This document shows, piece after piece, positions 17,845-55,389 of a stretch of 55,830 nucleotides of DNA. Both the position numbers and the translations under genes were made by a program. Position 1 is the stretch's first letter; each line of letters opens with the position of its first letter. Source of the stretch: a virus (lineage: Duplodnaviria; Caudoviricetes); the IMG/VR virus record IMGVR_UViG_3300030102_001765, positions 1 through 55,830 of that record. One strand, 5' to 3'. The notes under the pieces were generated by a model. That model saw only the letters and a program-made list of their open reading frames with translations. It was not told where the DNA came from and did not search any database.

Positions 17845-18045
17845 TTGTACAAAGCATTTGTGACAATATGTCACTTAATGAACCCTGAGTATTGTATCGT
17901 ACTGGAAGACCAATACGGCCCGTACAAGACAGAGGAAATGTGCAAAAGACGTGCATACGAAATATCAAGGAAAGTTCACAAAGGCTATCCTATGTACAAG
18001 TCCAAAAGGTTCAGATGCCCTAAAATTGGAGATTATGATTTATAG
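17845..18045 (+). CDS. Small Cys-rich hypothetical protein
   Basis: TTG start, 4 Cys, fills the gap. Confidence 0.55.
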   Translation: MYKAFVTICHLMNPEYCIVLEDQYGPYKTEEMCKRRAYEISRKVHKGYPMYKSKRFRCPKIGDYDL

Positions 18046-35400: not shown

Positions 35401-38400
35401 ATGAGCCAAACCAAATGCCACTGTTCTTCTATCACGGGACACCACGTGGTAACAAACTAAAGAAAGCAAACAATCCAAACGTGCAAATGCGTCCGTCTGA
35501 GATTGGACTGTACGGCCCTGGCATTTACGTAACAGAAAATCCTTTTGTTGCATCACAAATGTACGCAAGGACACCAACGTTCAATGCAATGGTTGATGCG
35601 ATAGATGAGTCAAACCTTTCAGACATTATCAAAGAAGATTTGCACTGGGATGCTTACGAGCTAACACAGGTAAGACGTGATATTGGCAAGCTAAGACGAC
35701 AGTATGCGTCTTTGCAGCCAGATGCTTACTTGCAGCGGGAGATTGCAGACGAGAGAGTTCTTGTTAAAGAACAGCTAGACGAACTCATACAGGTTGAGCG
35801 TGGTCTAGTAGAAAACATGAAAAAGAATGGCATGGAGTTTGAGTCTGATGTCTTGCCTACAGTTATCAAACTAGATAGCCCAGCAGACTTCAGAGCAACA
35901 AGCGTATATCAGTCTGAAGACGACCCGTTCTTGCAAGCTCTCATGGCAAAGTTTAACGAAGAAGACGTCCCAGCAGAGATGATTTCTTCTCTTAGTATGC
36001 GAGGTGTAGATGGTAGAGCGTTTGGCCCAAGAACTGGAGAAGACATTTATAACTCTGTTATTGATGCTTTTGTTCGCTTCGGTGGTAGAAGTAAGACAGG
36101 CGCTCAAGCAGAATTTAACAATATGTTACAAGAGATGGGATATGATGGTCTCTTAACTACACACAGAAATAGCTTGAATGATGGAGATGAGTTCGTCGAA
36201 GTAAACAGAACTTACGGCGCTTCAAGTATTCAACACGAAACAGCTGTTCTGTTTAACTCAAATCAAATTAAACACATCGACGCAGATGAGTTTAATGATA
36301 TGGAGTACGGCATCTATGCACAAACTACAGGCAACCCAATTCCAAAAGGTGCTGTGGGAAGCATGGCAAGAGGCCTTCAAGACGGAGACTTCAACAGCAT
36401 AAACGACATTCCTGTTGGTGAGTTTGGAGAGCTACTAGAATCAGCTGGTGGTGACCCGAACTATGTCGGCGCTCTTATGTCTCTTATGAGAAAGAGAACG
36501 CTTACACCAGCCGAAGAAGAAACAATTAGAAAGTCTAGCCCTGTTGGTTTCCTTAAATCACAGTCTAACAATTTAAGAGATATGGGTGCTAGGTGGCTGG
36601 GTGATTGGTATGAAAACCATTTCCCTAATCTAAACCAACGCTTTGCTGGAATATACTTCCCAATCCAGAAAGCAATGAGAGACTTGCCTGACTCTGACGG
36701 AAGCTTGAAAAGATACTTCAAGAAGTCTGTAAATGTTGGCACAAAAATTACAGACAAGATTGCAGAGCAACCAAAATCTCATGCCAAGATTGTAAAAGCC
36801 TTACGTTATGGAGATGGAAGCCGTCACGAGACAGCTCTTACCGACCAAGAACGTGTTGTTTACAGGCAAATTAGGGGTGCTTTTGAGGCAGAAAGACAAG
36901 CCATGCTAGATGCTGGTTTGATGGTTGGTTATAGACAAAACTATTTCCCACAAGTTTGGAACGCAAAAGCCATTGGTAAGGACAGGGATAAGTTCGTCGA
37001 AGTTCTGCAACGGTACTACAACAAAGATGCGCTTCTAAATGGAAGAACACCTACAGACGCAGAAGCAAAAGACTTTGCTGAAGGCGTGATGATGAAGCTT
37101 GTAGATGATGAGGACGGTGCAGACGGAACATTCATTCCAGTAAAGGGTACAACAAGGAGCCCAACATTCGACAACGTTGATTACTCAAGGGTTCTTGAGC
37201 TTGATAGACCAGAGTTTATTGACGAGCTTCGAGACCTAGAGAAGTATTTAGAGAGCGACCTCGATGCTTTGCTGGTTAAATACTTTGAGGGTAGTTCAAG
37301 AAAGATGACGCATGTAGACGAGCTTGGTATCAACAGCCACGCTGTTTACGATTACATGCAAGTAGCTGAAGAAGGCATACAAGGAATTGCAAAGCTTCTA
37401 TCAACAAACAAACAGTTTAGGTTTGATAGGAGTGCAACAAACGCATCTGGCATGAGAGAAACATTTACTCTGCAAGACGTAATACGTATGCCGTTTGCAA
37501 ACAGTGATGCTGAAGCTCTTAAGTTTGCAGAGCAGTTAGTGAATACGCACAATGGTGCTGGCGCTCCAGCTGCAAGACAACTTCTTTATTCTGTGGCTCC
37601 AATAGACCCACGCACTGGCAGAATGAACCAGACATATAAGAGACGTGCTGATGCAATCGTGCATGCTCTTGATGACTTCAAAGGCAAAACAGGAGTGTTG
37701 CAACCACAAGACTATGACTTTATCGAACGTTCTTTAAAGCCTGTTATGAAGAAGCCCCTAACAACTATGGGAGGCAAAGCAATACAAACAGCCTCAAGGA
37801 ATGTAAGATTCTTTAACAACATCACGTTGCTTTCATATACAACTCTTACATCTCTTGGTGACTTAATGTTACCAATCATCCGTTCTGGAAGCATGAAGTC
37901 TTGGATGAAAGGAATGTACAGCTTGAGAGATGCTGAGATGAGGCAAGCGATTAGAAACACAGGCGTTGCTATGGAGAACATCATTCACGAAAGAATGATT
38001 CATCTGTATGGCGCACCTGATGGCAAGGCATCACACGCTTTCTTTAATGCCACGTTGCTTACAGACTGGACTGATATGAACAGACAGATAGCAGCAGCAA
38101 CTGGTTACAACTATTTTCAAGCGATGCAGACGAAAGCATTTAACAACTTCAAAGAAGGCGTGCCTTACGCACAGCAACCAGCATCATACAAAACTGCACA
38201 CAGAGCTTTGAAGATGTATGGTCTTGAGATGTATTTGCCTGGGGCAGAAGTGAACCCAAAATCTCTTGGCGATAAAAACGTCTTGCAAGACAAGCATGTT
38301 AAGATGGCTATGATTAGATTCGCTGATGATTCTATCTTCCAGCCTAATGCAGACGACGTACCAATGTGGGCTCAAACACCAATAGGTGCAGTTGTATTCC

Positions 38401-38996
38401 AGCTCAAGTCATTCCCGCTGATGATGACACGTCTTACAGGACACGTCTTGAAGGAAGCAAACTCTGGAAACTTTGGCCCACTGTTAGCTTTCGCAACTCT
38501 TGGCCCAACATTTGGTATGGGAACTCTAGCAGCAAAAGATATTTTGCAGTCACGTGGTGGTGAAGAAGGCAGAACCCCAGAGGTTAGAAAGAGAAACATT
38601 CTTAAATCTCTAGGCTATGACAAAAAAGTACATGGAGATGAAAACGACTTCCTTGGCTGGTATGTTGAAGGTTTGATTGTAATGGGTGGTCTTGGTCTTA
38701 TTGGAGACATGATGCACACAGCAGTTGAACAAATAGACAACGGAGCTTACGGACGAGAAAGAATGTGGGGAACATTACTTGGCCCAACGTTTGGTCTTGG
38801 CAACTCAGTAGCTAATGTTTTTGCTGGCATCGGAGAGGAAGAAGGAAGCGGTAAAGCAAGACAAGCAGTCAGAGAAATTGCCAACAGGATACCAGTTGTC
38901 GGTGGTAACAGAGCAGCTAAAGAAGCTATCGTTGATGCAGTTGCTGGTGAAACTGATGATGGTTCCAAGTCTTATCTAAGGAGCATCACTAAATAA
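29415..38996 (+). CDS. Giant polyvalent internal virion protein (zincin peptidase, ADP-ribosyltransferase-like and E3-binding/Lsr2-like motifs)
   Basis: 3193 aa; HEVGH+EYFAE; YHGT..GPGIYVT..GYDG..NQIK; SGRITKRQV. Confidence 0.8.
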   Translation: MANQTNYDGISFAPQEEGATDVGYLNVSPDQITKDPRFLTDLRKYYADYGKYFSTDQEYLDEFYEDATWRDLNTAGAVIGATYTAGESKETRARAKRLEQAWRQLPMFWQEGGRGFASAAPDIAKAIILDPVNLIPVVGAYGKAANVAKAAYLAGTAGREATKAGIKSGIITAGVQEAGIGALAEGVISTANQIRDVQLGLEDEVSLGRVAKDAVIGGATGGIIGGGVLGPVPAFIGARRGVNRTAAQVDELTGKGLTGQQIADTVAARGVTGFDELVEASKDTDAFLGPPETTETTTATESPTAEIDEKINQIKTFYKEEQDLLDSQLDDGVDPDIVAETEVNLNELAALREFGENLKAEQIEISKLEASNNPNLRAQAQKRRAIFERNYSKFRRATKGGLNLSEINEILEQYRAKPSDTADANPVETETTTTEATGEGTTTTEAAPEGRTEGTAPEADATATETVPADETVTATVEVKFDDMPFRNEAQKTKIQSRFNEEYTQEQFEADFAAGKISVGRDGKFTRDTVGEVTASASLARDRKAFTEMMDSKKPEPNETTVTAEPEAKTDEIIIDSESRGRALAAGLDPKDIPAAEASASGRITKRQVNKAINAAKNKPKSSYAQQVKRDLDTLLETIGEDIDVDENSLRALIRVMSQDKAAYRSDPDDILALFDEFNKSGMATGDKAFTKTELKKIRQLVRKIRDPKEGNPEFSKETAQILAERQVLNARDNPETQTESLVRSVQKSIDNKSIYETAGRDTRGRIQAMLRKSSVNVKPNEFAKEEAIIKATSGKGPDVVKYISGGETAIGPDGRKVRVKAGTTLFADGVTKRSFVSYEYLMKTRGVNIGKKSTKKVKQPTDETPTITNEVVQKLVADLQADGDTDKFIRTVKALQKKGAGVPEEPSATVDVPTTSAGKKLIVRSKNNAADVRMISQKQISEGKGIEAIIGQKGGPNSNPANWEIKYAPFDAEAKTLRARQELFESLPSGEVPGQTREDVIKKPMDEADFNEKELELSEAEVAIVNNILGDMGFRGANGLKGNAITGRTLMVMEDKLSMGGWPVKESAMDARIEQIAFLENLMAKIAPDGVNKPVQTRAEAKLAIENIFAGHSSEEIAGAKRLIDMLGGDPDKAPLIRGKTTDTIGAYRGYYTQRDNAVTMRTGQGRGTDMTQLTPTINVLYHEVGHWAYRNILTPEDRAQFWNIAKTHYKGGRVDSGSIDESRYLQNQTISKEGRPDYVVRQPTSPQEYFAEQFEMWVSRKKASPDLATEKFWQRIATYVKGIFDRYYYGAELNPDLEPIFAKIIPDVEEEVTFRLGVDGEPKKEIGKHIQKRLVQLQIVKEDIESAIGRDSPEAIVEAHKELQLLLLQMVPNSKVVARDGADAAIFSPLRKGAAGRRGMVKLIRDRINNYDEMIDGRQYGTDDGFDVRNYGDFSTQADLEKVAEQLKDFYYNGYAGTFKPAQGLPPSVKVENIGNRRSSTQNLIGMIDKQLNAVYQQKEGTTNLIGGSKPDMANKPPVRSNGKVQPSKTAKNTKIKNERIKEQTLNEAVQVAKTKKNSRARVTAKNTPAINQNSAESVKGKKLNDLLALFRKHKGTEYGDQIGVEIVNKIKSQPAPAKQVRVSRETFKLSGDALESELLDALHVGDKARVDEAYAEVVRRANNKRAKSQGGAAILKPKFKKAKMAIATEIAHNKGVIRNDGIPSAARASVREMLSYITHRDTEMQQVSRTIAYRMMNILNKSSYGTMQNANRITMDIMARLGRGDYAVTGDGAFGNYNLPDFKNFRNTVRRLATALNKGEDVDSGITELNKMVIRSGALPQDEMDVIRAAYDALDDTAKAQVIAKHGSKYEGYYSMTRDEMLANEWFGDSISRYMKEDITREDILELSISGDTQNIANIAVLDRAIDRTIEYSSYIANGQIGRQDVKNAYRRVSMYGDMFEDNAARPLAGSLEGKYLTHPSYAADYAHDSFMSMSKDKKTKILRFVKGGYGFDEPNQMPLFFYHGTPRGNKLKKANNPNVQMRPSEIGLYGPGIYVTENPFVASQMYARTPTFNAMVDAIDESNLSDIIKEDLHWDAYELTQVRRDIGKLRRQYASLQPDAYLQREIADERVLVKEQLDELIQVERGLVENMKKNGMEFESDVLPTVIKLDSPADFRATSVYQSEDDPFLQALMAKFNEEDVPAEMISSLSMRGVDGRAFGPRTGEDIYNSVIDAFVRFGGRSKTGAQAEFNNMLQEMGYDGLLTTHRNSLNDGDEFVEVNRTYGASSIQHETAVLFNSNQIKHIDADEFNDMEYGIYAQTTGNPIPKGAVGSMARGLQDGDFNSINDIPVGEFGELLESAGGDPNYVGALMSLMRKRTLTPAEEETIRKSSPVGFLKSQSNNLRDMGARWLGDWYENHFPNLNQRFAGIYFPIQKAMRDLPDSDGSLKRYFKKSVNVGTKITDKIAEQPKSHAKIVKALRYGDGSRHETALTDQERVVYRQIRGAFEAERQAMLDAGLMVGYRQNYFPQVWNAKAIGKDRDKFVEVLQRYYNKDALLNGRTPTDAEAKDFAEGVMMKLVDDEDGADGTFIPVKGTTRSPTFDNVDYSRVLELDRPEFIDELRDLEKYLESDLDALLVKYFEGSSRKMTHVDELGINSHAVYDYMQVAEEGIQGIAKLLSTNKQFRFDRSATNASGMRETFTLQDVIRMPFANSDAEALKFAEQLVNTHNGAGAPAARQLLYSVAPIDPRTGRMNQTYKRRADAIVHALDDFKGKTGVLQPQDYDFIERSLKPVMKKPLTTMGGKAIQTASRNVRFFNNITLLSYTTLTSLGDLMLPIIRSGSMKSWMKGMYSLRDAEMRQAIRNTGVAMENIIHERMIHLYGAPDGKASHAFFNATLLTDWTDMNRQIAAATGYNYFQAMQTKAFNNFKEGVPYAQQPASYKTAHRALKMYGLEMYLPGAEVNPKSLGDKNVLQDKHVKMAMIRFADDSIFQPNADDVPMWAQTPIGAVVFQLKSFPLMMTRLTGHVLKEANSGNFGPLLAFATLGPTFGMGTLAAKDILQSRGGEEGRTPEVRKRNILKSLGYDKKVHGDENDFLGWYVEGLIVMGGLGLIGDMMHTAVEQIDNGAYGRERMWGTLLGPTFGLGNSVANVFAGIGEEEGSGKARQAVREIANRIPVVGGNRAAKEAIVDAVAGETDDGSKSYLRSITK

Positions 38997-39379: not shown

Positions 39380-39690
39380 CTCAGAAGAAGCTGCAAAAAC
39401 AATCAAAGTATGCGGAGTATGATGAGGACGGTGATGGTATTGTGAGTGACGAAGAACTCTCTCATATCAAAACTATCAAAGAGACAGAGACAGAATTACG
39501 AAAAAATTTAGCACAGTTACGCATGGCTAGGTTCACATTGGTTGCAATGGGTGCGTTTACTCTTGCGATGTTTTTCGTACCAATAGAGCGAGTACAAGCT
39601 TTAGCGGATATTAGTAACCTATTCTATATATCAGGCGCTGGAATAGTCGGCGCATATATGGGAACAACAGCATGGATGAGTAGAAAATGA
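39376..39690 (+). CDS. EF-hand-containing two-TM membrane protein (putative holin/antiholin)
   Basis: DEDGDGIVSDEE loop followed by two hydrophobic helices. Confidence 0.7.
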   Translation: MTQKKLQKQSKYAEYDEDGDGIVSDEELSHIKTIKETETELRKNLAQLRMARFTLVAMGAFTLAMFFVPIERVQALADISNLFYISGAGIVGAYMGTTAWMSRK

Positions 39691-40082
39691 TACAAGCATT
39701 GATAGGCCCAGTAACAGGGCTACTAGATAAATTTATTGAAGACAAAGACCAGAAGGCGAAGTTGGCTCACGAGATAGCCACCATGTCCGAAAAACATGCC
39801 CAGCAGATAGCGCTCGCTCAAATAGAAGTAAACAAAGCTGAAGCTGCATCTGGTTCGCTGTTCAAAGGCGGTTGGCGCCCAGCAGTTGGATGGACGTGTG
39901 CGTTTGCCTTCCTATACCATTTTATAATTAAAGACCTAATTGTGTTTGCCTGTGCAATAGCTGGCGTAGAAATACCAGAGCTACCAGAATTTGATATGGG
40001 TACACTTTTAACCGTCCTCGGTGGCATGCTCGGAATCGGGTCACTCAGGACATACGAGAAACAAAAAGGATTAACTAAATGA
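39687..40082 (+). CDS. Holin (3TM, GTA-holin-like)
   Basis: GGWRPAVGW and GMLGIGSLRTYEK motifs; directly before the endolysin. Confidence 0.85.
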   Translation: MIQALIGPVTGLLDKFIEDKDQKAKLAHEIATMSEKHAQQIALAQIEVNKAEAASGSLFKGGWRPAVGWTCAFAFLYHFIIKDLIVFACAIAGVEIPELPEFDMGTLLTVLGGMLGIGSLRTYEKQKGLTK

Positions 40083-40534
40083 CATTTAAATTATCAGAGC
40101 GAAGCCTCGGCAAGCTTGAAGGCGTGAATGACAGCATGAAACTTGTTGTTATGAAAGCCATAACCCTTACGAAAATTGACTTCGGAGTTATTTGTGGTCT
40201 GCGAACTCAAGAAGAACAAGAGGAGCTGGTAGCAAAAGGTGCATCCAAGACGATGAAGTCACGCCACCTTACTGGTGATGCCGTAGACTTGATGTGTTAT
40301 CTTGGCTCAAGGGGTTCTTGGGAATTGAATTTGTACGACGACGTTGCAGACGCAATGAAACAAGCAGCCCAAGACGAAGGAGTTGGAATACGTTGGGGTG
40401 CTGCCTGGCAGATACCAGACATTCGTGAATGGGATGGAACAATGGAAGAAGCTATGAACGCTTACGTAGACTTACGTAGGTCTGAGGGCAGACGTCCTTT
40501 CATTGACGCTCCACACTTTGAACTCAGCGAATAA
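40079..40534 (+). CDS. Endolysin, M15 family L-Ala-D-Glu peptidase
   Basis: GLRT..Q, SRHLTGDAVD, IRWG, DAPHFE. Confidence 0.9.
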   Translation: MTFKLSERSLGKLEGVNDSMKLVVMKAITLTKIDFGVICGLRTQEEQEELVAKGASKTMKSRHLTGDAVDLMCYLGSRGSWELNLYDDVADAMKQAAQDEGVGIRWGAAWQIPDIREWDGTMEEAMNAYVDLRRSEGRRPFIDAPHFELSE

Positions 40535-44257: not shown

Positions 44258-44485
44258 ATGCGACTTAACATCGAGAAGCTCATCACCGATTTGGGTGGGG
44301 CGTCTTCGGTGGCTAAGATAACTGGCGTGGTTCGTACTGCCCCATACGGCTGGATGAAGCGACGCTATATAAGTAGCCAAGTTCTTGAGAAAATAAAGGA
44401 GCATGCTCCAGACATTGACTTTAACGATTACTTTGAGGAAGACGAACATGAACGAAAAACTGGCAGCAGCGCTGGATTATCTTGA
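44258..44485 (+). CDS. Cro-like HTH regulator
   Basis: LITDLGGASSVAKITGVVRTAPYGW; divergent position; RBS AAGGAG. Confidence 0.75.
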   Translation: MRLNIEKLITDLGGASSVAKITGVVRTAPYGWMKRRYISSQVLEKIKEHAPDIDFNDYFEEDEHERKTGSSAGLS

Positions 44486-46349
44486 GAGAGGTTGGTCTGT
44501 AATACCAATCAAACCAGACGCTAAAAGACCCGCTATTAAGTGGAGACAATATCAAGAGAAGCCACCTACTGAGAAAGAAGTAGACCAATGGTGGACACAG
44601 TGGCCTGACTATGACATTGCAATCATAACAGGCGAAGTAAGTGGAGTTGTTGTTGTCGATTGCGACAATGATGAAGCTTACAAACAGGCAATAAATACAG
44701 GCATGCGCTCGGCTTTTACAGTCAAGACGAAGAGAGGAGTGCATTTATATTTCGAGCATCCCAAAGACGGAGTTCGTCGTGGGCCTCGTGCTGGCGTAAA
44801 CAGCACGGGCTCCGACTGGCCTCGCATAAATGGTTTAGACTTTAGAGGCGACGGCTCTTATGCGTTGTTGCCTCCAAGTAAAAACTACAGTTGGGAAATA
44901 GGTATGGGCTTGGATTGGGATGACCTTCCAATTTGGAAGGATTGGAAACCAATCTTACCATCTATGGACGGCAAAGACTTTGAGTTCTCGCAGTTAGACT
45001 TGTCGTCTGTCATGCCACTAGACCCAGACGAGTTTATATCTGAGTGGGACAGGACTGCCAAATATGTCCGTGATTCTTTTCCAAACTCACTGAAGATTCC
45101 ATCTGGTCTTGGAAACGGACGCAATGAACGTGTGATGCGGTACATATCTGAATCCATACTTGAGGGGTTCTGGGGTCACGATTTACGTCTTCGTGGCTAC
45201 GCATTTATGAATGAGTTTTTTGAAGAGCCCTTAACAGAACGTGAGTTTGAAGCAACCGTTCTGTCTATGGAACAATCAGAACGACGTAATCATCCTGACA
45301 GATTCGATGAGAAGGGTGACTATATATATAAGCCATACATAAATGCCAACCAACCAGTCGAAGCTAGGTCACGCAGACTTATACAGATGAAGGATGCAGA
45401 CCAGCTGTTACAAGAAGCTGATGCAAAGACGTATCTGATAGAACCTTGGCTTCCAAGCAACACGATTGTGCAAGTGTTTGGATACAGTGGTCACGGCAAG
45501 TCGTTGTTTGTGCAACATGCGATGGGTGCTTTGGCTGCTGGCAACAAATACTTTGGCCCTTTCGAGATAGGCAAGCCAGCACGTGTCTTGTACATGGACT
45601 TCGAGATGGGCATGGCTACCATTGCAAGACGATTGATTGACTTGAAATCAATACACTCTGATACAGCTGACAGACTCAATATCTGGACTCCGTTTATTGA
45701 TAAGAAAGAAATCAATCTGCACAACAGAGATGGCTTACAGGAACTGCAAGGTTGGATTGAGTTCTCTGACCCAGACGTTGTCGTCATTGATACACTGCGA
45801 ACAGCTTATCCAGGGCTTCAAGAGAACAGCTCAGACGAATGGTCAAAGGTAAACCAGCTCGCAGTGAAGCTCAGAAACTCTGGCTTGTCTGTAATACTTA
45901 TACATCACAGCAACAAACCAAGTGACAGTGGTATCGGGAGAGAAGCTGGCTCAACGAATCAGCTTACTACTTTGGAAACACAGATACGTGTAGCACAGGT
46001 ATTCCAAGACGAAGATACAGCGAAACAAAATGCTGCGTTGTATGATGGCAACTACGACCAACCTGTTTGGCCCTTGCTGCAAGGAAGTTTGCCTGAGAAC
46101 TTTCGTCTGTACATGGTGATGGAGGTTCGGTACGGAAAGGTTCGTGAGTGGACAGACCTACACGATAGAGTTCAGTGGCTGGGGTTTTCCGCAAACGATA
46201 TTACTGGCGAGAAGCGTATCGTCGCTAGCAAATCTACAAAACAAAAAGCAAAAGAGATGGCTCTGAACGGACTAGATGCCGAGCATATAGCTGATAAGCT
46301 GGGCAAGCCCCTTACTTTGGTTCGTCTTTGGTTGGAGTTATCGAGGTAA
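44448..46349 (+). CDS. Bifunctional Prim-Pol primase / RepA-like (AAA_25) helicase
   Basis: GWSVIP, VVVDCD, GVHLYF, DFRGDGSY, GRNE; Walker A GYSGHGKS, VVIDT, LIHHSNK; RBS GAGG before ATG 44448. Confidence 0.92.
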   Translation: MNEKLAAALDYLERGWSVIPIKPDAKRPAIKWRQYQEKPPTEKEVDQWWTQWPDYDIAIITGEVSGVVVVDCDNDEAYKQAINTGMRSAFTVKTKRGVHLYFEHPKDGVRRGPRAGVNSTGSDWPRINGLDFRGDGSYALLPPSKNYSWEIGMGLDWDDLPIWKDWKPILPSMDGKDFEFSQLDLSSVMPLDPDEFISEWDRTAKYVRDSFPNSLKIPSGLGNGRNERVMRYISESILEGFWGHDLRLRGYAFMNEFFEEPLTEREFEATVLSMEQSERRNHPDRFDEKGDYIYKPYINANQPVEARSRRLIQMKDADQLLQEADAKTYLIEPWLPSNTIVQVFGYSGHGKSLFVQHAMGALAAGNKYFGPFEIGKPARVLYMDFEMGMATIARRLIDLKSIHSDTADRLNIWTPFIDKKEINLHNRDGLQELQGWIEFSDPDVVVIDTLRTAYPGLQENSSDEWSKVNQLAVKLRNSGLSVILIHHSNKPSDSGIGREAGSTNQLTTLETQIRVAQVFQDEDTAKQNAALYDGNYDQPVWPLLQGSLPENFRLYMVMEVRYGKVREWTDLHDRVQWLGFSANDITGEKRIVASKSTKQKAKEMALNGLDAEHIADKLGKPLTLVRLWLELSR

Positions 46350-46515
46350 CTTTTGCATCAGGGAAGTGCTGTCTGATTTCGTCAACTATCTTGGCGACTT
46401 CTGGGTGGCGCTTCCTATTTTCTTCACGCTGTTTCTCAATCTCTAAGTCACGATTGCGCTTCCAAGAGTTGTACTTTTCTTCAATTTCTTTTTGTCTTAG
46501 ATTTAATTTTTTCAT
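46312..46515 (-). CDS. Hypothetical protein
   Basis: NRKRHPEVAKIVDEIRQHFPDAKV; convergent with the primase gene. Confidence 0.6.
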   Translation of the reverse strand: MKKLNLRQKEIEEKYNSWKRNRDLEIEKQREENRKRHPEVAKIVDEIRQHFPDAKVTSITPTKDEPK

Positions 46516-46525
46516 GTATTAAGGA

Positions 46526-46631
46526 TGATACAACGACTTTCACTTCGCTAAAAACGCCTTAAGTCAAAAGGCGTGGTTTACAACCACGCCTTTTAAAGAC
46601 TAAACGTTTAGTCGTTGTATCACTTTTGACT
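46526..46631. repeat. Nested inverted repeats/palindromes
   Basis: 13-bp outer IR 46526-38/46610-22; 13-bp hairpin 46566-78/46582-94; 16-bp palindrome 46598-613. Confidence 0.9.
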
Positions 46632-46722
46632 GGATAAATCAACACCTAGAAAAAAATTTCTTGTAAATATTTGTTATTAGTATTAAATGTTATACTATAC
46701 ATGGAAAAAGGAGCAGTGATAT

Positions 46723-47016
46723 ATGCCAAGAAACATTCGAGTCTCGGACTCGGACTTATCTTGGCTTCGTCAAAACCATAGAATTAAAACTTACTCTGAC
46801 ATGGCACAACACCTAAATTGTTGTGTCGATACCTTGAAAAGAATACTTGTAAGAGAAGGCTTGCAAGAGTTCGATGGGGCCAAGTATCAGGTTCGCCGTG
46901 ACTTCCAAGGAAAAACGTGGACTAGGCCGTGCATGAAATGTAGAGATACGACAGAGCGACCCAAGAATTGGTTTTTTTGTAAGTCTTGTCGTAAAGATTT
47001 GGGGTACGAAGATTGA
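46723..47016 (+). CDS. HTH plus C-terminal Zn-finger transcription factor (GcrA-like architecture)
   Basis: TYSDMAQHLNCCVDTLKRIL HTH; CMKC...CKSC; RBS AAGGAG; extended -10 TGTTATACT upstream. Confidence 0.65.
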   Translation: MPRNIRVSDSDLSWLRQNHRIKTYSDMAQHLNCCVDTLKRILVREGLQEFDGAKYQVRRDFQGKTWTRPCMKCRDTTERPKNWFFCKSCRKDLGYED

Positions 47017-47396
47017 GTAAACAAAAGAAAAAAGGCGACGACTACGAAAGAGAGTTAGCCAAATACATTAATCAAGAAACAGGACTGAAGACAGCACATA
47101 GAGCCCCATTATCTGGTGGCGGTTACGTAGACATGTCGGGTGGTGCAGATATTCTTGGTGTCCCAGGGATATTCATAGAAGCAAAACGTGTTGAACGTCT
47201 GAACTTCCATGATGCCCTGAGACAAGCAGAACGTAACATAGGAAAAACAAATGCGCCAGAGGTTCCTATAGTAATTAATAGAAAAAATAGAATGAAGACA
47301 GGCGAAAGCCTATGTCTGATAAGGCTAGACGACTTCTTAAAATTTTATTGTAGTTACCTGAGAGAAACAGGTTCAGTCAAATTTAACAACAGATAG
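47013..47396 (+). CDS. Holliday junction resolvase (Hjc-like PD-(D/E)XK)
   Basis: KKKGDDYERE, RAPLSG, ADI, IEAKR. Confidence 0.85.
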   Translation: MSKQKKKGDDYERELAKYINQETGLKTAHRAPLSGGGYVDMSGGADILGVPGIFIEAKRVERLNFHDALRQAERNIGKTNAPEVPIVINRKNRMKTGESLCLIRLDDFLKFYCSYLRETGSVKFNNR

Positions 47397-47426
47397 GACG
47401 ACTAAGACGTTGTCATCCAGTATCTT
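47396..47426 (+). promoter_or_regulatory. GGACGAC-N18-TATCTT putative late promoter (basic-protein operon)
   Basis: Recurrent motif overlapping the resolvase TAG. Confidence 0.7.
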
Positions 47427-47497
47427 TATTGAGGGTAGAGAAGTACAGTTTATTGGCTGTATACTTTTATACATACTTTACAGAGTGGTTTTTGGAT

Positions 47498-47764
47498 ATG
47501 GCACGAAAGAAAAAGAACGTCAGTTTATCAGTAGGAAGAGGCGAAAAGAGACCCGCCTCCAGAGGGGCGGGCCTCACAGCAAAAGGCAGACGTAAATATA
47601 ATAAAGCTACGGGCTCTAACCTGAAAGCTCCACAGCCACAAGGTGGTAAACGTAAGAAATCATACTGTGCAAGGTCTGCTGGCCAGATGAAAATGCACAA
47701 CATCAGTTGTAAGAAAACACCAAAGAAAAGAATCTGCGCAGCCAGACGTCGATGGAAATGCTAA
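47498..47764 (+). CDS. Small basic protein (DUF6321-like)
   Basis: GLTAKGRRKYN, LKAP, RKKSYCAR, ARRRWKC. Confidence 0.75.
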   Translation: MARKKKNVSLSVGRGEKRPASRGAGLTAKGRRKYNKATGSNLKAPQPQGGKRKKSYCARSAGQMKMHNISCKKTPKKRICAARRRWKC

Positions 47765-48381
47765 TGGCAGACGACTGGGAAGAATACTCAAGTTTGATTG
47801 CAGCTGAAATACAGGCGTGGTCAAACGAAGTCTTGGAAAAACCAACGCCACTGTTTGCAGACATGCCACCATGTCCTTTTGCAAGGAAAGCTTGGATGGA
47901 TGGACACGTTGTCGTACATGTCACAGACCATCTTGCTCCAGTAATCAACATCAAAAGCCACGAGCTGTTACCAACAGACGAAACTGTACATGTCGTAGCG
48001 TGGACAGGCTGGGAAGACTTGACTCGACAAGAGTTCGAGGCGTGGCTAGACGAACAAAACAAAAACCATTTCGGCATTTGGCTTATGGGTTTTCACCCAG
48101 ACGCCGAACACAACCCCAACATTCCTGAGTTCGATGGTCTTGTTGAGGACGACTACGCACTAATTTTAGTGCAATCATTGAGTAAACTTGTTCAAGCATC
48201 TGATAAGTTGAGGAAGACAAGTTACTATGAAAAGTTTAAGATAGAAGACATCAAGTATATTAACAACCGCAAGGAGGTATGCAATGCGTGGAATGAAAAA
48301 GTCAATGAAGAAGCCTATGCCCAAGAAGAAAGCTATGGCATCAAAAAAAGGCTCCTCAATGAAGAAGAAAAAATCCATTAG
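47752..48381 (+). CDS. DUF1415-like protein
   Basis: PPCPFARKAW and GFHP motifs; acidic; start may be a later Met (~47758-47764). Confidence 0.6.
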   Translation: MEMLMADDWEEYSSLIAAEIQAWSNEVLEKPTPLFADMPPCPFARKAWMDGHVVVHVTDHLAPVINIKSHELLPTDETVHVVAWTGWEDLTRQEFEAWLDEQNKNHFGIWLMGFHPDAEHNPNIPEFDGLVEDDYALILVQSLSKLVQASDKLRKTSYYEKFKIEDIKYINNRKEVCNAWNEKVNEEAYAQEESYGIKKRLLNEEEKIH

Positions 48382-48391
48382 GAGAGCATAA
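48284..48391 (+). CDS. Lys/Met-rich micro-protein (35 aa, not in track)
   Basis: RBS AAGGAGGT; MRGMKKSMKKPMPKKKAMASKKGSSMKKKKSIRRA; stop abuts the next ATG. Confidence 0.7.
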   Translation: MRGMKKSMKKPMPKKKAMASKKGSSMKKKKSIRRA

Positions 48392-48583
48392 ATGATTAAG
48401 AAAAACCGAGGTGTAATCTTCGGAACACGTGGCAAGACGCCAGGGATGCAGACGATGAAGGTTGGTGGCAGAGCTATCAACCCTTATCGTGCAATGTCCA
48501 TGATGCCTAGCCAGTTCGGAAGAACAACTACAGGAGTAAAGCCTATCTTCGGTGGTCGTGGTCGTTCCCTCAGACGTAGGTAA
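48392..48583 (+). CDS. Arg/Gly-rich micro-protein
   Basis: RBS AGGAG; no acidic residues. Confidence 0.7.
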   Translation: MIKKNRGVIFGTRGKTPGMQTMKVGGRAINPYRAMSMMPSQFGRTTTGVKPIFGGRGRSLRRR

Positions 48584-48588
48584 AGACT

Positions 48589-48720
48589 GTGGCTAGCATT
48601 GGTAGGAAGGTAAAGTCTGTCGCTAATAAAACGCAGACAGGTAAAATGAAACACGCAAACTGTCCTTGCGTGATAGCAAGAGGTAACAATGGCAAGAAAG
48701 TCAACGTCAAAAAAGCGTAA
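48589..48720 (+). CDS. Basic micro-protein (43 aa, not in track)
   Basis: GTG start after AGGT; MASIGRKVKSVANKTQTGKMKHANCPCVIARGNNGKKVNVKKA. Confidence 0.55.
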   Translation: MASIGRKVKSVANKTQTGKMKHANCPCVIARGNNGKKVNVKKA

Positions 48721-48874
48721 GACTTCTGCTAAGAAAGACGCTTGTTACCACAAGGTTAAGTCACGCTACACAAAGTGGCCTAGCGCTTACGCAAGCGGAG
48801 CGTTAGTTAAATGTAGACGTGTAGGTGCAAAGAACTGGGGTAATAAGAGTGGCTCGAAGCGAAAGTCTGCATAA
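48689..48874 (+). CDS. Basic micro-protein (DUF5872-like)
   Basis: KKDACYHKVKSRY..WPSAYASGALVKCR; RBS GAGGT. Confidence 0.75.
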   Translation: MARKSTSKKRKTSAKKDACYHKVKSRYTKWPSAYASGALVKCRRVGAKNWGNKSGSKRKSA

Positions 48875-49067
48875 ATGGTTCAGCCGAAACAAAGGCAAAG
48901 GTTGGGTAGACTGCAAGACTGGAAAGCCTTGTGGTCGTAAGTCGGCGAAAGGTAAATCCAAGAGACCTTACCCAGCTTGCAGACCGACGAAGGCTCAATG
49001 TACGTCTGCCAGCAGAAAGAAGAAAGGGCCAGCACGTATCAGCTGGAAGAAAGGTAAAAAGAAATGA
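48849..49067 (+). CDS. Basic Cys-containing micro-protein
   Basis: SLHKWF..WVDCKTGKPCGR..YPACRP. Confidence 0.7.
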   Translation: MARSESLHKWFSRNKGKGWVDCKTGKPCGRKSAKGKSKRPYPACRPTKAQCTSASRKKKGPARISWKKGKKK

Positions 49068-49213
49068 TGGGTCGCAACAAAGGAATGAAGAAAGGAAAGG
49101 GCTTAACTAAAAAGCAAAAGATGATTGCTGGTATGGCTCCTCCCTTTGACAAGATAACAGGCGCAGACTTCAAGAAGCTTAAGCAGAAGAAGAAGCGCAC
49201 GAGAACAGCTTGA
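49064..49213 (+). CDS. Basic micro-protein (49 aa, not in track)
   Basis: ATGA coupling; LTKKQKMIAGMAPPFDKITGADFKKLK. Confidence 0.7.
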   Translation: MMGRNKGMKKGKGLTKKQKMIAGMAPPFDKITGADFKKLKQKKKRTRTA

Positions 49214-49530
49214 TTTGCTATAAATGTGGGGGCTCTACAAAAGTATTAGACAGTCGTTCCAAAGACGGAAGCATAAGACGCAAGAGAACATGCACGAATT
49301 GCACTACGAGTTTCTGGACATTGGAAGTATTAGAGACCTCCTTGCACACAGAGAAAGACTGTACGTCAGAGAAGAACGTTTCTCAGACGAAAAGAAAAGC
49401 AGCCCCAAAAATTTCCCAGGAAAAACTAAATAACACATCGTATATGTTCGACGTCGACAGCTTGTCAGACGAAGAGCTGGAAAGACAGGTGATGTCTGGC
49501 AACGTACGATTTGACGAAGACGAACTATAG
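49210..49530 (+). CDS. NrdR-type Zn-ribbon domain protein (no ATP cone)
   Basis: CYKCGGSTKVLDSR..IRRKRTCTNC..F.T.E. Confidence 0.75.
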   Translation: MICYKCGGSTKVLDSRSKDGSIRRKRTCTNCTTSFWTLEVLETSLHTEKDCTSEKNVSQTKRKAAPKISQEKLNNTSYMFDVDSLSDEELERQVMSGNVRFDEDEL

Positions 49531-49560
49531 GACGACACTTCCTACTCCCGTAGCTATTTT
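49530..49560 (+). promoter_or_regulatory. GGACGAC-N18-TATTTT putative late promoter
   Basis: Recurrent motif overlapping the TAG. Confidence 0.7.
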
Positions 49561-49585
49561 ATAAGAGGGTGTTAAGGAGGTTAAG

Positions 49586-50038
49586 TTGGAACCAATTACA
49601 ATGGCAGTCGCAGCTTTTAACGGAATAAAAGCGGGCGTGGCTGCTGGAAAAGAAATTTCGTCTTTGGCTAAAGACATCGGCAAAATGTTCGATGCGATTG
49701 ATAATGTCAAAAAAGAACACAACGATGAAAAGAACAAACCTTTTCAGTCTGCAAACGAAGAAGCGTTAGAAACTTTCATTAACAAGAAACAAGCCGAAGA
49801 CCTTGAAGACAACTTGCGACAAATCATTACCGCAACTAGAGGCCCATCTGCATGGCAAGAACTAATACGTATGCGTGTCGAAGTCAGGAAACGTAGACAA
49901 GAAGAAATCGAAGCAAAGATAAGACGACGACGAGAAATTATCGAAGCTATCGGTACTTGGTTTCTAGTTATTTTTCTCGTCGTCTTAGTAGGTGGTGTTG
50001 GTGTATTAGCTTTGGCTAAATACTTAGGCAGAATCTAG
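49586..50038 (+). CDS. Membrane-anchored coiled-coil protein
   Basis: RBS TAAGGAGG, TTG start, C-terminal TM helix. Confidence 0.75.
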   Translation: MEPITMAVAAFNGIKAGVAAGKEISSLAKDIGKMFDAIDNVKKEHNDEKNKPFQSANEEALETFINKKQAEDLEDNLRQIITATRGPSAWQELIRMRVEVRKRRQEEIEAKIRRRREIIEAIGTWFLVIFLVVLVGGVGVLALAKYLGRI

Positions 50039-50278
50039 TAACAATACTGCCCAATGCTCTAAATATTGAGGGGCTTTTGGCCCCTCAATATAATTGCGTC
50101 CATCTTTTTCAATGAACCCAATGTACATAAGTGTGTGAAGATAACGTGATACACTGTGTTGCGTAACACCTATGGCTTCAGCTATCTCCTTTTGTCGATT
50201 CACTGGTGTCGTCGACTGGCGGAGGTGCTTTAGAATTTTCACTGCCATCACTTTCTGGTTGTGCGTTAGTCGGTGCAT
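50024..50278 (-). CDS. Winged-helix DNA-binding protein
   Basis: RQKEIAEAIGVTQHSVSRYLHTL..GFIEK. Confidence 0.75.
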   Translation of the reverse strand: MHRLTHNQKVMAVKILKHLRQSTTPVNRQKEIAEAIGVTQHSVSRYLHTLMYIGFIEKDGRNYIEGPKAPQYLEHWAVLLLDSA

Positions 50279-50487: not shown

Positions 50488-51474
50488 TTACTCTCCTTCA
50501 AGTAAGTTGATTGTTGTTTCTAAATGTGTCGGTGCGAGATGCGAATACCTCATCACCATTGCTAGAGACGAATGTCCAAGCAAGTCTGCAACTGCTCGAA
50601 GAGATGCCCCCTTTTGCACCAAGTGACTAGCGAACGTATGTCTACAGTCATGTGGTGTAAAATCTTTTATGCCAGCAACATTACAAGCGTTGTAAAAGCT
50701 ATCGTAAAACTTAGACCTCACCCACTGGCTTCCATCTGGCTGAGTGAAAACGAAATCGGCGTCGTCGTCGACTGTCAGAATTTTAGATACTCTGGCCCCC
50801 AGCGGAACAGCTCGAACTTTTTTTCGTTTCGTCTTGCCTTTTCTGCTGGTAAACAAAGCCGAGCCCCTGTGAATATCCTGTGGACGAAGTGCGAAAGCCT
50901 CGCCAATCCTCGCCCCCGTATAGAATAAAAAGGTTACGACGTCTTTGATTGTGCTGTCGCAACAGTCAATCAAGTGGTCTCGCTCGCTCTCGGTCAACCA
51001 ACGCAAGCGACTATCGTCCACGTTCGGACGCACAATGTTAATGCTTGGCACATCCCACCCCATACTTTCTGCATGCGATAGCATGGCTTTGATACTGTTC
51101 AACTCTCTCGCCACAGTGTTCGGCTTGTTTCCACGGCTCGTGACGTGGTGCATAATCTGCTCCAACGTCAACGCATGCAATGGAACATGCCCAAGTGCAG
51201 ACGAAAAAAGTCGCATGATTGTTTGGTCGGTAGTCCCAGGAGAGTTTGGTCGTCCCAGGAAAGCATCCGCTGCGTCAGCTGCAAGACGTCTTGATTTCGT
51301 CTTGACCTCTCCCGCTGCGACTGCTGCGTAAGTTTTTGTGAGTTCGTCTTTGGCTTTGGATTTCTGGCTCTTGTGGAGGCCCGTGGATTTCCGTACTCGG
51401 ATGGGTCTTCCGTCTTGTATGACAGTGCCAGTTATCTGCCATACGTCTTTGCGTAAAGTTAAGTTAAGTGTCAT
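50488..51474 (-). CDS. int: Tyrosine recombinase/integrase
   Basis: YTGARIGE, HDCRHTFAS, LLGH, RYSH catalytic residues all present. Confidence 0.95.
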   Translation of the reverse strand: MTLNLTLRKDVWQITGTVIQDGRPIRVRKSTGLHKSQKSKAKDELTKTYAAVAAGEVKTKSRRLAADAADAFLGRPNSPGTTDQTIMRLFSSALGHVPLHALTLEQIMHHVTSRGNKPNTVARELNSIKAMLSHAESMGWDVPSINIVRPNVDDSRLRWLTESERDHLIDCCDSTIKDVVTFLFYTGARIGEAFALRPQDIHRGSALFTSRKGKTKRKKVRAVPLGARVSKILTVDDDADFVFTQPDGSQWVRSKFYDSFYNACNVAGIKDFTPHDCRHTFASHLVQKGASLRAVADLLGHSSLAMVMRYSHLAPTHLETTINLLEGE

Positions 51475-53278: not shown

Positions 53279-53453
53279 AGTCCACCTCCATACATATTAG
53301 TTTGATTGCATTGTAATTCGTCGACCTCACACGTTGGTCAACAACTCTATGGGCAACCTCCAACCAAAACTTGGTATGCCAACCACGTTTCGGAAAGAGG
53401 CTGAACCATTCCGTACGTACCACTGTGGTACGTTTCCGTTTACCTCGACGCAT
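53247..53453 (-). CDS. Hypothetical early protein
   Basis: Overlaps both neighbours on the coding strand. Confidence 0.5.
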   Translation of the reverse strand: MRRGKRKRTTVVRTEWFSLFPKRGWHTKFWLEVAHRVVDQRVRSTNYNAIKLICMEVDYEFRHKENNR

Positions 53454-55389
53454 TGAGCAATAGAGAATTGTCTACGACAAACCTCTCTCCCAATAGGATA
53501 CGTGCAAGGTTATCCATGCCAGCATGTGCAAGCGTCTCCACCGAATCCACAACTGTGTACTTCGGATAGTATCTCTTCACACTGTCTGTCTGAATACCGA
53601 TGCCAAGACACTCGATGTCTTCGGCAACCAACTGATTGACGGCATCTCGGCAATGTTGGTCGAGAGCATGGCTGTCACCACTCGCACAAGGCATGCCGTC
53701 TGACAAGACGAACATAATCTTGCGACGCTCACTCCTTGGCTTGAGTCTGTCTCTCGCATACAGGATTGCCTCGCCGTCTGAATTGTTGCCACCCGCCATG
53801 TCTGCGATAGTACCGAGCGAACCCTTTGCCTCGTACAGACGTTCTTCAAATGCCTTGAAGATGTACATGTCCAAGGGCTCGTATCTGCTGAAACTACCAG
53901 TGCTTTCGGCTCTGATGGAATGACGAGTGCCACTCTTGTGACTAGTACGATTGTTGAAACCCAACACCTCGTACTTGATAGATGTTCGGTCAATCGCCTC
54001 AATCATGGCAATGGCACACTGCATAGCAACGTAGGCTCTATGGCTTGCCATCGAACCCGATAGGTCAATCAAGAACGTGACGGCAGTATCCAAGTCTTGT
54101 CTCTCGGTACGCAACTTGAACACGTTGGGCTTGCTGTTGTACGCACCAACAAAACGTCTGCTATCGAGACGACCTTGCTCCTTGGCATAATCCCAATCTC
54201 GGTTCTCACGAGCAAGCAAGGCACGTTCAAGCTTTCGTCGCATGACATTGACATCGCCAGCCATGCCAGCAACTTGCTTGTCATACTCGTCTGCCGTACC
54301 CTTTGCCATCCATCTGCCAAGCGTTTGACGTGAGCCGTACTTGGTTGGCTCGTCAAGTCTGTGATGCCACTTGTCACTGGCAGTAGACAACGGACGATAC
54401 GAACCACGACCACCCTCAAGCAACTCGGTTGTCTTGCGTAGTTCCTTGACCACACAATCCCTGACGTCGAATTGTTCGTAGACCTCTACGTCTTCGGACT
54501 CTTCGGGTTTCGTCTCCGTGGTAGCATCACCACGTTCTCCGCCTCCATACTCGTTGCCGTGTTTGTGTCCGTCGTCTGGCTTGCTTTCCTCTCCACCACT
54601 CGAAGGGTTGTCGCTTTCGCTCCCATCTCCGTCAGACCCCTCATCAGCAGACCCATCGCCTTTCTCCTCTGATGGGGCTCGACCATCATCTCCACTCGTA
54701 GGTTTATCCCCTTTCGTAGCTCGACCATAAGGCTTATCAGTTTCTTCATTGGCATCTGCCTCCTCTCGTAGTTCACGTTCGATAGTTCTTGCAAGGTCAA
54801 CAATGTCCTTGCTGTTTCTGCATGCGTCGATAGCCTTGACCCACACTGGCAACTTCTTGCGAAGATTGTCACTGCATACGTCAAGACATTCGCCACACGT
54901 CTCGCCACCATATCCCTTGCGACCCTCCCAAGTGATGGCAACTGGTGCAAGGAATCTGTCGTCTTTCAATCGCTTGTCCGTCTTGGATACGTTGTCGAGA
55001 AACTCTCGATTGACCGCAGACGTAGTTGCTCGCAAGTTTTTCTCGCTCCCAGGATAGTCACGCATGACTCGTCTCTCCAACCACACGTCTTCGAGACCAT
55101 TGGCTAGTGACTTGAGCAGTACGTTGTTCTCTTTCGCACACTCATTGAAGAACGAACGAAGAGCCTTGAAGTTCGTGTGCTTGACGTGACCACTCTCATG
55201 GTCAACGTAGCCACGAATAATCTCGGCAGTGGCATCATCAACCTCTGCATTGTGGTCAATAGACGGCAGATAGATGGTCGAACCATCCGTCGCCGCTCCG
55301 TCGCCTTGGAACACGACGGATACGTCTTGCTTTCTACCGAATACGGATGAGGTCTTTTGAACCTCGTGTGTGAATAAATCTCCTCTCAT
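53440..55389 (-). CDS. CobT-like protein (N-terminal HExxH domain, acidic linker, C-terminal vWA)
   Basis: RGYVDHESGH, NGLED, GRLDSRR, MIDAS IDLSGSM, NSDGEA, VLSDGMP, GIGI. Confidence 0.9.
   Translation of the reverse strand: MRGDLFTHEVQKTSSVFGRKQDVSVVFQGDGAATDGSTIYLPSIDHNAEVDDATAEIIRGYVDHESGHVKHTNFKALRSFFNECAKENNVLLKSLANGLEDVWLERRVMRDYPGSEKNLRATTSAVNREFLDNVSKTDKRLKDDRFLAPVAITWEGRKGYGGETCGECLDVCSDNLRKKLPVWVKAIDACRNSKDIVDLARTIERELREEADANEETDKPYGRATKGDKPTSGDDGRAPSEEKGDGSADEGSDGDGSESDNPSSGGEESKPDDGHKHGNEYGGGERGDATTETKPEESEDVEVYEQFDVRDCVVKELRKTTELLEGGRGSYRPLSTASDKWHHRLDEPTKYGSRQTLGRWMAKGTADEYDKQVAGMAGDVNVMRRKLERALLARENRDWDYAKEQGRLDSRRFVGAYNSKPNVFKLRTERQDLDTAVTFLIDLSGSMASHRAYVAMQCAIAMIEAIDRTSIKYEVLGFNNRTSHKSGTRHSIRAESTGSFSRYEPLDMYIFKAFEERLYEAKGSLGTIADMAGGNNSDGEAILYARDRLKPRSERRKIMFVLSDGMPCASGDSHALDQHCRDAVNQLVAEDIECLGIGIQTDSVKRYYPKYTVVDSVETLAHAGMDNLARILLGERFVVDNSLLLNASR

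Follow-up and report, generated by a model that had tools for sequence, protein, structure and literature searches.

The Pfam families DUF5872 (PF19197) and DUF6321 (PF19846) are found in phages, bacteria and giant viruses and have no function attached to them; the literature that we searched mentions them in gene tables only. For DUF1415 (PF07209), a family with no solved structure, no described function was found at the level of search listings. Relatives of all three families lie together in a cluster of small genes at 47498-49213 (plus strand) of IMG/VR virus record IMGVR_UViG_3300030102_001765, a marine-phage (Caudoviricetes) sequence of 55,830 nucleotides that we call the window over its whole length. 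The cluster holds seven coupled open reading frames (ORFs) for basic proteins and one for an acidic protein of 209 amino acids (aa). A sequence-only reading had described it as a dedicated late module around the acidic protein and knew of no functional description of such a cluster, and our literature searches agree with the latter statement.

Known systems that the cluster brings to mind include packaged basic proteins. The internal proteins IPI-IPIII of phage T4 are small, basic and made late, and they are packed and injected with the DNA, having been loaded by means of a leader for capsid targeting that is then removed by the head protease. The basic proteins of the window are likewise small and basic, but they have no sequence similarity to IPI-IPIII and belong to a podovirus-like genome; no T4-type protease turned up among the PHROG matches of 40 window ORFs, a scan that was not aimed at a protease or a leader. 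The likeness to protamine-like DNA-condensing proteins is one of composition alone. Closer in sequence are the cyanomyovirus T4-GC119 proteins (S-P4, Syn9 gp114 and P-SSM2 gp114), which adjoin the small terminase gene and share with the window three modules, here called A, B and C, together with their Cys pairs. These are single long chains with Glu-rich spacers and extra modules, whereas the modules of the window are free-standing and in the order C ... A, B. Polyvalent proteins, too, are assembled from interchangeable modules, and their packaging and injection with the DNA have been predicted (Iyer et al. 2017, PMC5512222). That paper counts 2 to 15 disparate domains per polypeptide, whereas the window proteins are single modules with no enzymatic domain and only their relatives are fused. 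In the part of its text covered here, "cysteine" and "small domains" occur 0 times and modules A, B and C are unmentioned.

We find that the cluster is a composite of a trio unit, consisting of modules A, B and C, and an acidic-protein unit, in which the acidic gene is paired with the genes for the 35-aa and 63-aa proteins and is not the center of all the basic genes as had been proposed. The interpretation that we put first, with a probability of about 40%, is that the cluster encodes late-made, DNA-binding cargo of the capsid. A nucleic-acid-binding role inside the infected cell is nearly as likely.

The basic genes and the trio of modules

The seven small ORFs (88, 35, 63, 43, 61, 72 and 49 aa) are tightly coupled on the plus strand, just as had been read from the sequence: the successive gaps between the eight ORFs are -13, -98, 0, +5, -32, -26 and -4 bases, and Shine-Dalgarno-like sequences stand ahead of several starts, with AAGGAGG ahead of the ATG of the 35-aa gene. 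The predominance of Lys and Arg and the scarcity of acidic residues are equally real (K+R 24-46%, 0-2 D+E residues each, isoelectric point [pI] 10.9-12.0), and several of the proteins contain Cys (Table 1). Out of 561 ORFs of at least 30 aa in six frames, 8 are equally basic, and 4 of these fall in the cluster. The ORF of module B has a longest frame of 80 aa, from 48825.

With the acidic protein as the query, 16 related IMG/VR loci were retrieved. The cluster is complete and in the same order in nine loci (L003-L011), and the truncated locus L013 holds everything from the 3' half of the acidic gene onward; identity to the window in L009 and L010 is 73% for the acidic protein and 82 to 99% for the small proteins. 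Silent and changing codon differences were pooled over seven related loci, which are not independent of one another (Table 1). For the most part, codon differences leave the protein unchanged in the proposed frames, and nearly all of them alter it in the other frames (at least five times as many changing as silent codons in both alternative frames), so that, on this codon evidence, the ORFs are real and conserved genes under purifying selection, with a weaker signal for the 49-aa ORF. The sequence-only reading had offered to be judged by whether the ORFs are conserved and linked or untranslated and scattered, and since they are conserved, under purifying selection and linked, the ground on which it would have been given up is absent. 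A single large gene that has been broken up was also considered and rejected, as the module order of the window (C ... A, B) differs from that of known fusions and each ORF is under selection.

The shortness of the ORFs, the fact that gene callers passed over several homologues in public records and the excess of changing over silent differences in the 49-aa ORF might be taken to indicate untranslated chance frames in A-rich DNA. The frame-specific excess of silent changes refutes this for six of the seven ORFs, and together with the Shine-Dalgarno-like sequences, the homologues in hundreds of phage records and contigs and the Pfam and PHROG matches, it makes the idea close to untenable. Gene callers often miss or mis-frame such mini-genes: homologues of the 63-aa and 72-aa proteins are unannotated in the records of the Roseobacter phages CRP-810 (L001 6700-7097) and CRP-902 (L020 3477-3710), and the record of a third, CRP-2 (L021 2188-2541), annotates another frame over a module B homologue. 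Homologues of the 43-aa protein occur in L012, L014, L025, L026 and L096, and those of the 49-aa protein occur in L014, L025 and L063. The 49-aa motif resembles a single EF-hand calcium loop set in a very basic peptide, as do a 41-aa peptide of Prochlorococcus phage P-SCSP2, DANKDGKISREDF (L022 2755-2880), and the tails of 26 B proteins (for example, P0046 and P0031).

Module C, the 88-aa protein, is a member of DUF6321, passing the cut-off of 28.5 with 58.9 bits (E 7.9e-16) over profile positions 6-72 of 72 and scoring 58.4 bits in a six-frame search; it also matches phrog_10346 (1.1e-24). Module A, the 61-aa protein, matches phrog_727 (1.9e-20) and aligns with positions 7-44 of the 116 positions of DUF5872 at 16 bits, under the cut-off of 27.5 bits. 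Module B, the 72-aa protein, gives no match to DUF5872 at E ≤ 10, and its homologue in P-SCSP2 covers positions 55-112 of that profile with 53.3 bits. A Flavobacterium phage protein in which A and B are fused spans positions 7-83 (23 bits), and among the Atlas neighbors of the 72-aa protein, DUF5872 is present in 18 to 29% of the members. As A falls at positions 7-44 and the B homologue at positions 55-112, DUF5872 corresponds, by profile position, to module A plus module B. Unlike in the Pfam family, the two halves are divided here between overlapping genes in different frames, and neither window half reaches the Pfam cut-off alone. A frameshift that joins A to B was rejected because the junction varies among loci (overlap, abutment or gap). 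Each of the three modules has exactly two conserved Cys residues in the alignments, and module B has the signature KWF..GW(V/I)DC..PCGR..YPACRP, with both Cys residues invariant in alignment A2. An NCBIfam search with six of the proteins gave no match.

A pattern search with the module B alignment found at least 599 IMG/VR stretches, at least 579 of which encode a B relative. Linkage was counted in the best 80 of the at least 599 stretches, which hold the closest B relatives (71 to 96% identity) and are thus biased toward similar sequences. In all 80 loci, B is immediately preceded by A on the same strand, and in 66, C is also close by on that strand, in the order C-A-B or A-B-C. The other members of the window cluster are rare in these 80 loci (acidic gene, 7; 49-aa type, 6; 43-aa type, 5; 63-aa type, 4; 35-aa type, 3), and the low count for the acidic gene means that the cluster as a whole does not form a single unit around the acidic protein. 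Among 50,697 phage records, module A is found in 365, mostly from cyanomyoviruses and with up to 92% identity over 38 aa, and module C is found by tblastn in 158, from cyanomyoviruses, cyanopodoviruses and Pelagibacter and Microcystis phages; module B is found in 11 cultured-phage records. By these figures, few unexplained genes of ocean phages are as widespread as the mini-genes.

In other aquatic phages, the modules are fused, with acidic spacers, into proteins of 130 to more than 600 residues. The 529-aa protein of the cyanomyovirus S-P4 carries B, A and C in one chain, with stretches that are rich in Glu by eye ahead of the modules, and its gene adjoins the small terminase gene. We found 283 relatives of B of at least 127 aa, and architecture was scored by regular expression in the 120 that were listed. 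Module A precedes B in 69 of these, B is followed by an EF-hand-like loop in 26, and B stands alone in 24; a C-like tail is present in 3, 2 of them within the 69 with A before B and 1 with B only. In the 476-aa metagenomic protein P0135, module A is split after PSAYA by about 290 residues of which the first is Cys and the last is Asn, before Ser. Read by eye, this insert looks like an intein, and it has no match in Pfam or NCBIfam.

The acidic protein and its two companions

The acidic protein had been named DUF1415-like, a label that is right at the superfamily level and does not extend to membership in the Pfam family. Against DUF1415 (cut-off, 26 bits), no match was found at E ≤ 1, at E ≤ 10 in six frames or at E ≤ 0.01, and there was no match to any other Pfam family, including the likewise uncharacterized DUF6875 (PF21780), or in NCBIfam; PDB sequence searches with alignments A1 and A4 gave nothing below E 0.02. 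When compared by hhalign with an alignment of 17 gammaproteobacterial DUF1415 proteins, the narrow alignment A1 of the acidic family gave a probability of 90.8% (E 1.2e-6, 105 columns) and the broad alignment A7 gave 97.0% (E 1.2e-10, 131 columns). The C-P-F-A and F-H-P-D motifs were aligned in both comparisons, and control comparisons with reversed or unrelated alignments reached at most 0.3%. Judged by these profile comparisons, the acidic protein is a remote relative at the level of the DUF1415/DUF6875 superfamily that lies outside the Pfam family proper. The W...C-P-F-A and F-H-P-D motifs are common to it and to both families; unlike them, the window protein is viral, acidic and tied to basic mini-genes, and this tie offers a first experimental handle on the superfamily.

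This is a large family: a full hidden Markov model search returned 1027 representatives of clusters at E ≤ 0.001, including 430 at E ≤ 1e-10. Among 50 representatives (the window protein and 49 matches), 13 match DUF6875 and 3 match DUF1415. In 50 diverse members, Cys41 is invariant in a C-P-F/Y-A motif, and W23, H115-P116, Q141 and Y158/Y159 are near-invariant (alignments A1 and A7). The AlphaFold2 (AF2) model has an alpha/beta fold with the Cys at a helix start (predicted local distance difference test [pLDDT], 78.6; predicted template modeling score [pTM], 0.72). With its invariant Cys and its His-Pro pair, the protein could be an enzyme or a chaperone that serves the basic companions in the infected cell.

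These companions are the 63-aa and 35-aa genes. A gene of the 63-aa type lies directly 3' of the acidic gene in CRP-810, where it is unannotated, and in L014, L016, L017, L025 and L026 but not in L012; among the 50,697 phage records, CRP-810 is the only one with the 63-aa protein. In all of the lineages examined other than L012 and L017, the acidic gene is overlapped at its 3' end by a K/R-rich ORF, which starts MRG(M/R)KK in most lineages and differently in others. In L017, the overlapping ORF is missing, and a single peptide that begins MRGMKRPNRGVVF at the stop of the acidic gene joins both types. In the window, the overlap (48284-48381) has 17 silent versus 4 changing differences in the 35-aa frame and 0 versus 18 in the acidic frame. 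By this measure, the overlap is dual-coding, with selection on the 35-aa frame and not on the acidic frame, and the last approximately 30 residues of the acidic protein are a by-product of the overlap. Read in the acidic frame, the bases of the MRGMKK start of the 35-aa gene encode a conserved AWNEK. The 35-aa and 63-aa genes have a common frame in the window and in L003, but they are in different frames in L006 and L009; they are therefore separate, coupled genes, and a joint product made by read-through was rejected. The constancy of the overlapping arrangement suggests that the acidic protein is produced together with a basic partner. A complex prediction for residues 1-178 of the acidic protein (A1) and the 63-aa protein (A5) gave a score of 0.01 against a mark of 0.32, which weighs neither way on binding.

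It is conceivable that the acidic protein modifies or matures the 63-aa or 35-aa peptide and that the modified peptide is the active product. The constant adjacency, the overlap with the 35-aa gene, the catalytic-looking motifs around the invariant Cys and the near-invariant His-Pro pair, and the size of the family would all fit a tailoring enzyme. We nevertheless consider this unlikely, as no known enzyme fold or family was matched in the fold, PDB sequence and NCBIfam searches, no leader-and-core layout is visible, and the 63-aa peptides (alignment A5) have only R6, G7, F10, F42, G43 and a basic tail in common.

Traces of the two companion genes are present in metatranscriptomes. Twelve runs hold 5 to 11% of the sequence words of the cluster, and within 46700-50100, five contigs of 151 to 268 nucleotides (95 to 100% likeness; four runs from four studies) cover only 48229-48567. 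Such libraries can hold DNA, and the contigs show neither strand nor level. The folding of this 339-nucleotide segment as RNA is not decisive (z -2.89), and an Rfam search of 46500-50200 gave nothing below E 0.27.

Possible roles in the capsid or in the infected cell

The GGACGAC motif that had been noticed ahead of the cluster is present there and at 13 other places in the window, where 3.6 copies are expected; none of 100 shuffles reached 14. Eleven copies are on the plus strand and six are intergenic (Table 1), and five of these six lie within a few bases of a stop codon, with the next gene, where close, 38 to 102 bases on. On either side of the cluster, the motif is conserved in L003-L011 despite differences in the bases that follow it, and L012 has it in three places: ahead of the scaffold gene, behind B and behind the capsid gene. 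The motif thus stands ahead of the cluster and among the late structural genes, at places kept in relatives, which ties the cluster to the late genes. From this pattern, late expression of the cluster is plausible, and the motif may serve as a late promoter, in processing or as a site associated with terminators. Of the dedicated late module that had been proposed, the late link is therefore retained, while the single unit around the acidic protein is not.

The surroundings of the modules in other phages also point to the head. In L012, the interval between the scaffold and major capsid genes holds a cassette of C, the acidic gene, the 43-aa type, A and B, and in P-SCSP2, A, two other mini-genes, B and C are found in that interval. 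The 271 flanking ORFs of the 80 trio loci were grouped into 137 clusters, and representatives of 48 of these were scanned against PHROG. The neighbors named in this way include the large terminase in 11 loci (clusters of 8 and 3) and portal or adaptor proteins in 9 (5 and 4), as well as lysozyme-domain proteins, a holin, virion structural proteins, a "ferredoxin" family (21 loci) and many unknowns. The cyanophage fusion is labeled "structural protein, T4-GC0119" in three GenBank records. One of the longer B relatives, P0081 (602 aa), joins A and B to an ART-PolyVal domain (E 1.1e-10; 42.9 bits against a cut-off of 31.2). This domain is the ADP-ribosyltransferase of polyvalent proteins, which are predicted to be injected with the DNA (Iyer et al. 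2017).

The reading as capsid cargo draws on this fusion, the labels, the position in L012, the terminase and portal neighbors, the Cys pairs and the GGACGAC motif. A translationally coupled cassette of small polycationic proteins would probably be switched on with the late genes; the proteins would bind nucleic acid by charge and be loaded into the capsid with the DNA. Outside the reducing cytoplasm, the A, B and C domains may each be stapled by their conserved Cys pair, and inside the capsid, they might neutralize the charge of the DNA, enter the host with the genome, or both. If the proteins are DNA-bound cargo, they bear on how the DNA of marine phages is packed, stabilized and delivered, and standard tryptic virion proteomics would overlook them.

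Several observations weigh against packaging. The cluster in the window follows the primase and resolvase genes and not head genes, and three of its seven small proteins have no Cys. In the T7-like Synechococcus cyanophage S-TIP37, a DUF6321 gene lies between the scaffold and capsid genes beside the metabolic cargo genes hli and psbA, and because this interval also accepts hli and psbA, the position does not prove a role in the head. The Syn9 record labels proteins detected by mass spectrometry "structural protein," and its homologue at the same position is called only "gp114." In the part covered here, Sullivan et al. 2010 (PMC3037559) list T4-GC119 as "a hypothetical protein" in a mobile zwf/gnd/petE/PTOX cassette, the main text of the S-SCSM1 paper names no ORF of the T4-GC119 type, and virion detection of T4-GC119 is not confirmed by the main texts, as far as they were covered, or by a literature search on Syn9, gp114 and virion. 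ART-PolyVal is present in 1 of the 120 listed longer relatives, according to a precomputed Pfam column that a scan of 11 confirmed. The AF2 model of the natural A-B fusion P0086 (55-row alignment A6; pLDDT 60, pTM 0.33) is too poor for a fold search. For the acidic protein, Foldseek gave no match to the PDB at E ≤ 0.001 with the model, and the best match in a wide VIA-align search was AglA (9ub3_A; Z 5.4, root mean square deviation 4.4, 145 residues aligned), followed by Rossmann-like methyltransferases at Z 3-4, within the stated background of the tool.

In the rival reading, the proteins stay unpackaged in the infected cell and bind DNA of host or phage, RNA or ribosomes. They would compact the nucleoid, chaperone RNA or modulate translation, and their genes would form a mobile cargo cassette comparable with the metabolic genes beside which they are found. 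The window cluster lies at the end of a replication and recombination operon and adjoins a gene for an NrdR-like zinc ribbon, and Syn9 gp114 carries no structural label. The modules of S-TIP37 and of cyanomyoviruses are in islands with hli, psbA, petE, PTOX, zwf and gnd, the cyanomyovirus fusion itself being situated in a mobile cassette with the last four. The 92% identity of module A to cyanomyoviruses over 38 aa fits a universal cellular target or a recent transfer, and the restriction of the metatranscriptome contigs to the 35-aa and 63-aa genes is a weak hint in the same direction, as far as libraries that can hold DNA allow. On the other side, conserved Cys pairs are unusual in cytoplasmic mini-domains, a fusion to ART-PolyVal exists in one relative, the trio is often adjacent to genes for terminase, portal and capsid, and the GGACGAC motif is common to the cluster and the late genes.

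The lysozyme-domain and holin genes beside the trio (L031, L032, L036, L044 and L048) raise a third option, that small cationic peptides, some with Cys pairs, act on membranes, either in the role of spanins, disrupting the outer membrane to aid lysis, or as antimicrobials against competitors. The PHROG scans of 40 window ORFs named a holin and an endolysin and no spanin, which is in keeping with the former. This option is harder still to sustain than the tailoring enzyme, as proteins of 200 to more than 600 aa contain the same modules, along with acidic spacers or next to an ART domain, the sequences show no signal peptide or hydrophobic stretch, and the lysis genes of the window are 7 kb from the cluster.

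Capsid cargo stays the preferred reading, and a broader form of it can be put forward as a rather doubtful proposal: aquatic phages from many lineages may have in common a so far undescribed kit of polycationic mini-domains (A, B, C and others), stapled by disulfides, that ride on the DNA in the capsid as a counterpart of protamines or adenovirus core proteins, to which one group adds a Cys/His enzyme or chaperone of the DUF1415 superfamily. If true, this kit would shape the packaged DNA and enter the host with it, and the DUF1415 superfamily would gain its first functional context.

The genome around the cluster

The features of the window are collected in Table 1, in which names of genes outside the cluster come from PHROG scans where so marked; these scans also named portal/adaptor and tail fiber genes and a recombination block on the minus strand.

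Table 1. Features of the cluster and of the surrounding genome, with Cys residues per small protein and silent versus changing codon differences pooled over seven related loci
Feature	Position	Strand	Cys	Silent vs changing	Remarks
88-aa basic protein, module C (DUF6321)	47498-47764	+	4	149 vs 38	pI 11.8
Acidic 209-aa protein, remote relative of DUF1415/DUF6875	47752-48381	+			pI 4.7; 40 D+E
35-aa Lys-rich protein	48284-48391	+	0	17 vs 4	46% K+R; overlaps last 98 bases of acidic gene in another frame
63-aa basic protein	48392-48583	+	0	23 vs 11	Gly-rich; constant neighbor of acidic gene
43-aa basic protein	48589-48720	+	2	26 vs 11	H-x-x-C-P-C motif; GTG start
61-aa basic protein, module A (N-terminal half of DUF5872)	48689-48874	+	2	51 vs 22	WPSAYASG motif; conserved Cys pair
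72-aa basic protein, module B (C-terminal half of DUF5872)	48849-49067	+	4	33 vs 6	GTG start
49-aa basic protein	49064-49213	+	0	15 vs 23 (off frame, 7 vs 35 and 2 vs 41)	Motif (D/N)K(I/V)T(G/R)(A/G)D(F/V); weakest coding signal
NrdR-like zinc-ribbon gene	49210-49530	+			Closes the operon; zinc ribbon PF22811, 1.9e-11
GGACGAC	3347	+			Before first late gene; far from any listed gene end
GGACGAC	5920	+			After large terminase gene (TerL)
GGACGAC	19394	+			After capsid gene
GGACGAC	29357	+			Before giant virion protein
GGACGAC	47396-47402	+			Directly after resolvase stop, 96 bases 5' of first mini-gene
GGACGAC	49530-49536	+			Directly after stop of NrdR-like zinc-ribbon gene
AAA_5 (cobS-like) and CobT/VWA genes	3-1547 and 53440-55389	-			Higher-GC ends of the window
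TerL	4300-5919				PHROG scan
47-aa basic peptide	16320-16463	+			pI 10.7; upstream of scaffold gene
66-aa ORF	17845-18045	+	4		In scaffold-capsid gap
Major capsid protein	18197-19390				PHROG scan
3193-aa internal virion protein	29415-38996	+			PHROG scan
Holin and endolysin	39687-40534				PHROG scan
Primase	44403-46349				PHROG scan
Holliday-junction resolvase	47013-47396				PHROG scan
150-aa protein	49586-50038	+			C-terminal membrane helix
Integrase	50488-51474	-			PHROG scan

In the cluster region, Roseobacter phage CRP-810 is the nearest relative in culture. Direct terminal repeats are present in a close relative of 55,708 bp, and so the window is probably a complete phage genome. Genes of the cobS-like and cobT/VWA-like types are common in marine phages, and the higher-GC ends of the window need not, therefore, be host DNA. 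A scan of genome contigs with the acidic family, made to find a host, returned only seven short contigs of metagenome-assembled genomes, from mixed phyla.

The C terminus of the 3193-aa protein matches internal virion proteins with a lysozyme domain, and the protein has a weak match to ART-PolyVal (E 4.7e-4, under the cut-off); judged by these matches, it may be a giant polyvalent virion protein. The eighth basic peptide that had been reported at 16320 exists as an ORF apart from the cluster and is kept in three of the five related records searched (96, 85 and 44% identity). The place of the 66-aa ORF in the window is occupied by the basic cassette in L012. The 150-aa protein lies 3' of the cluster in the window and in L014, L016 and L017, and its homologue in CRP-2 directly precedes the small terminase gene.

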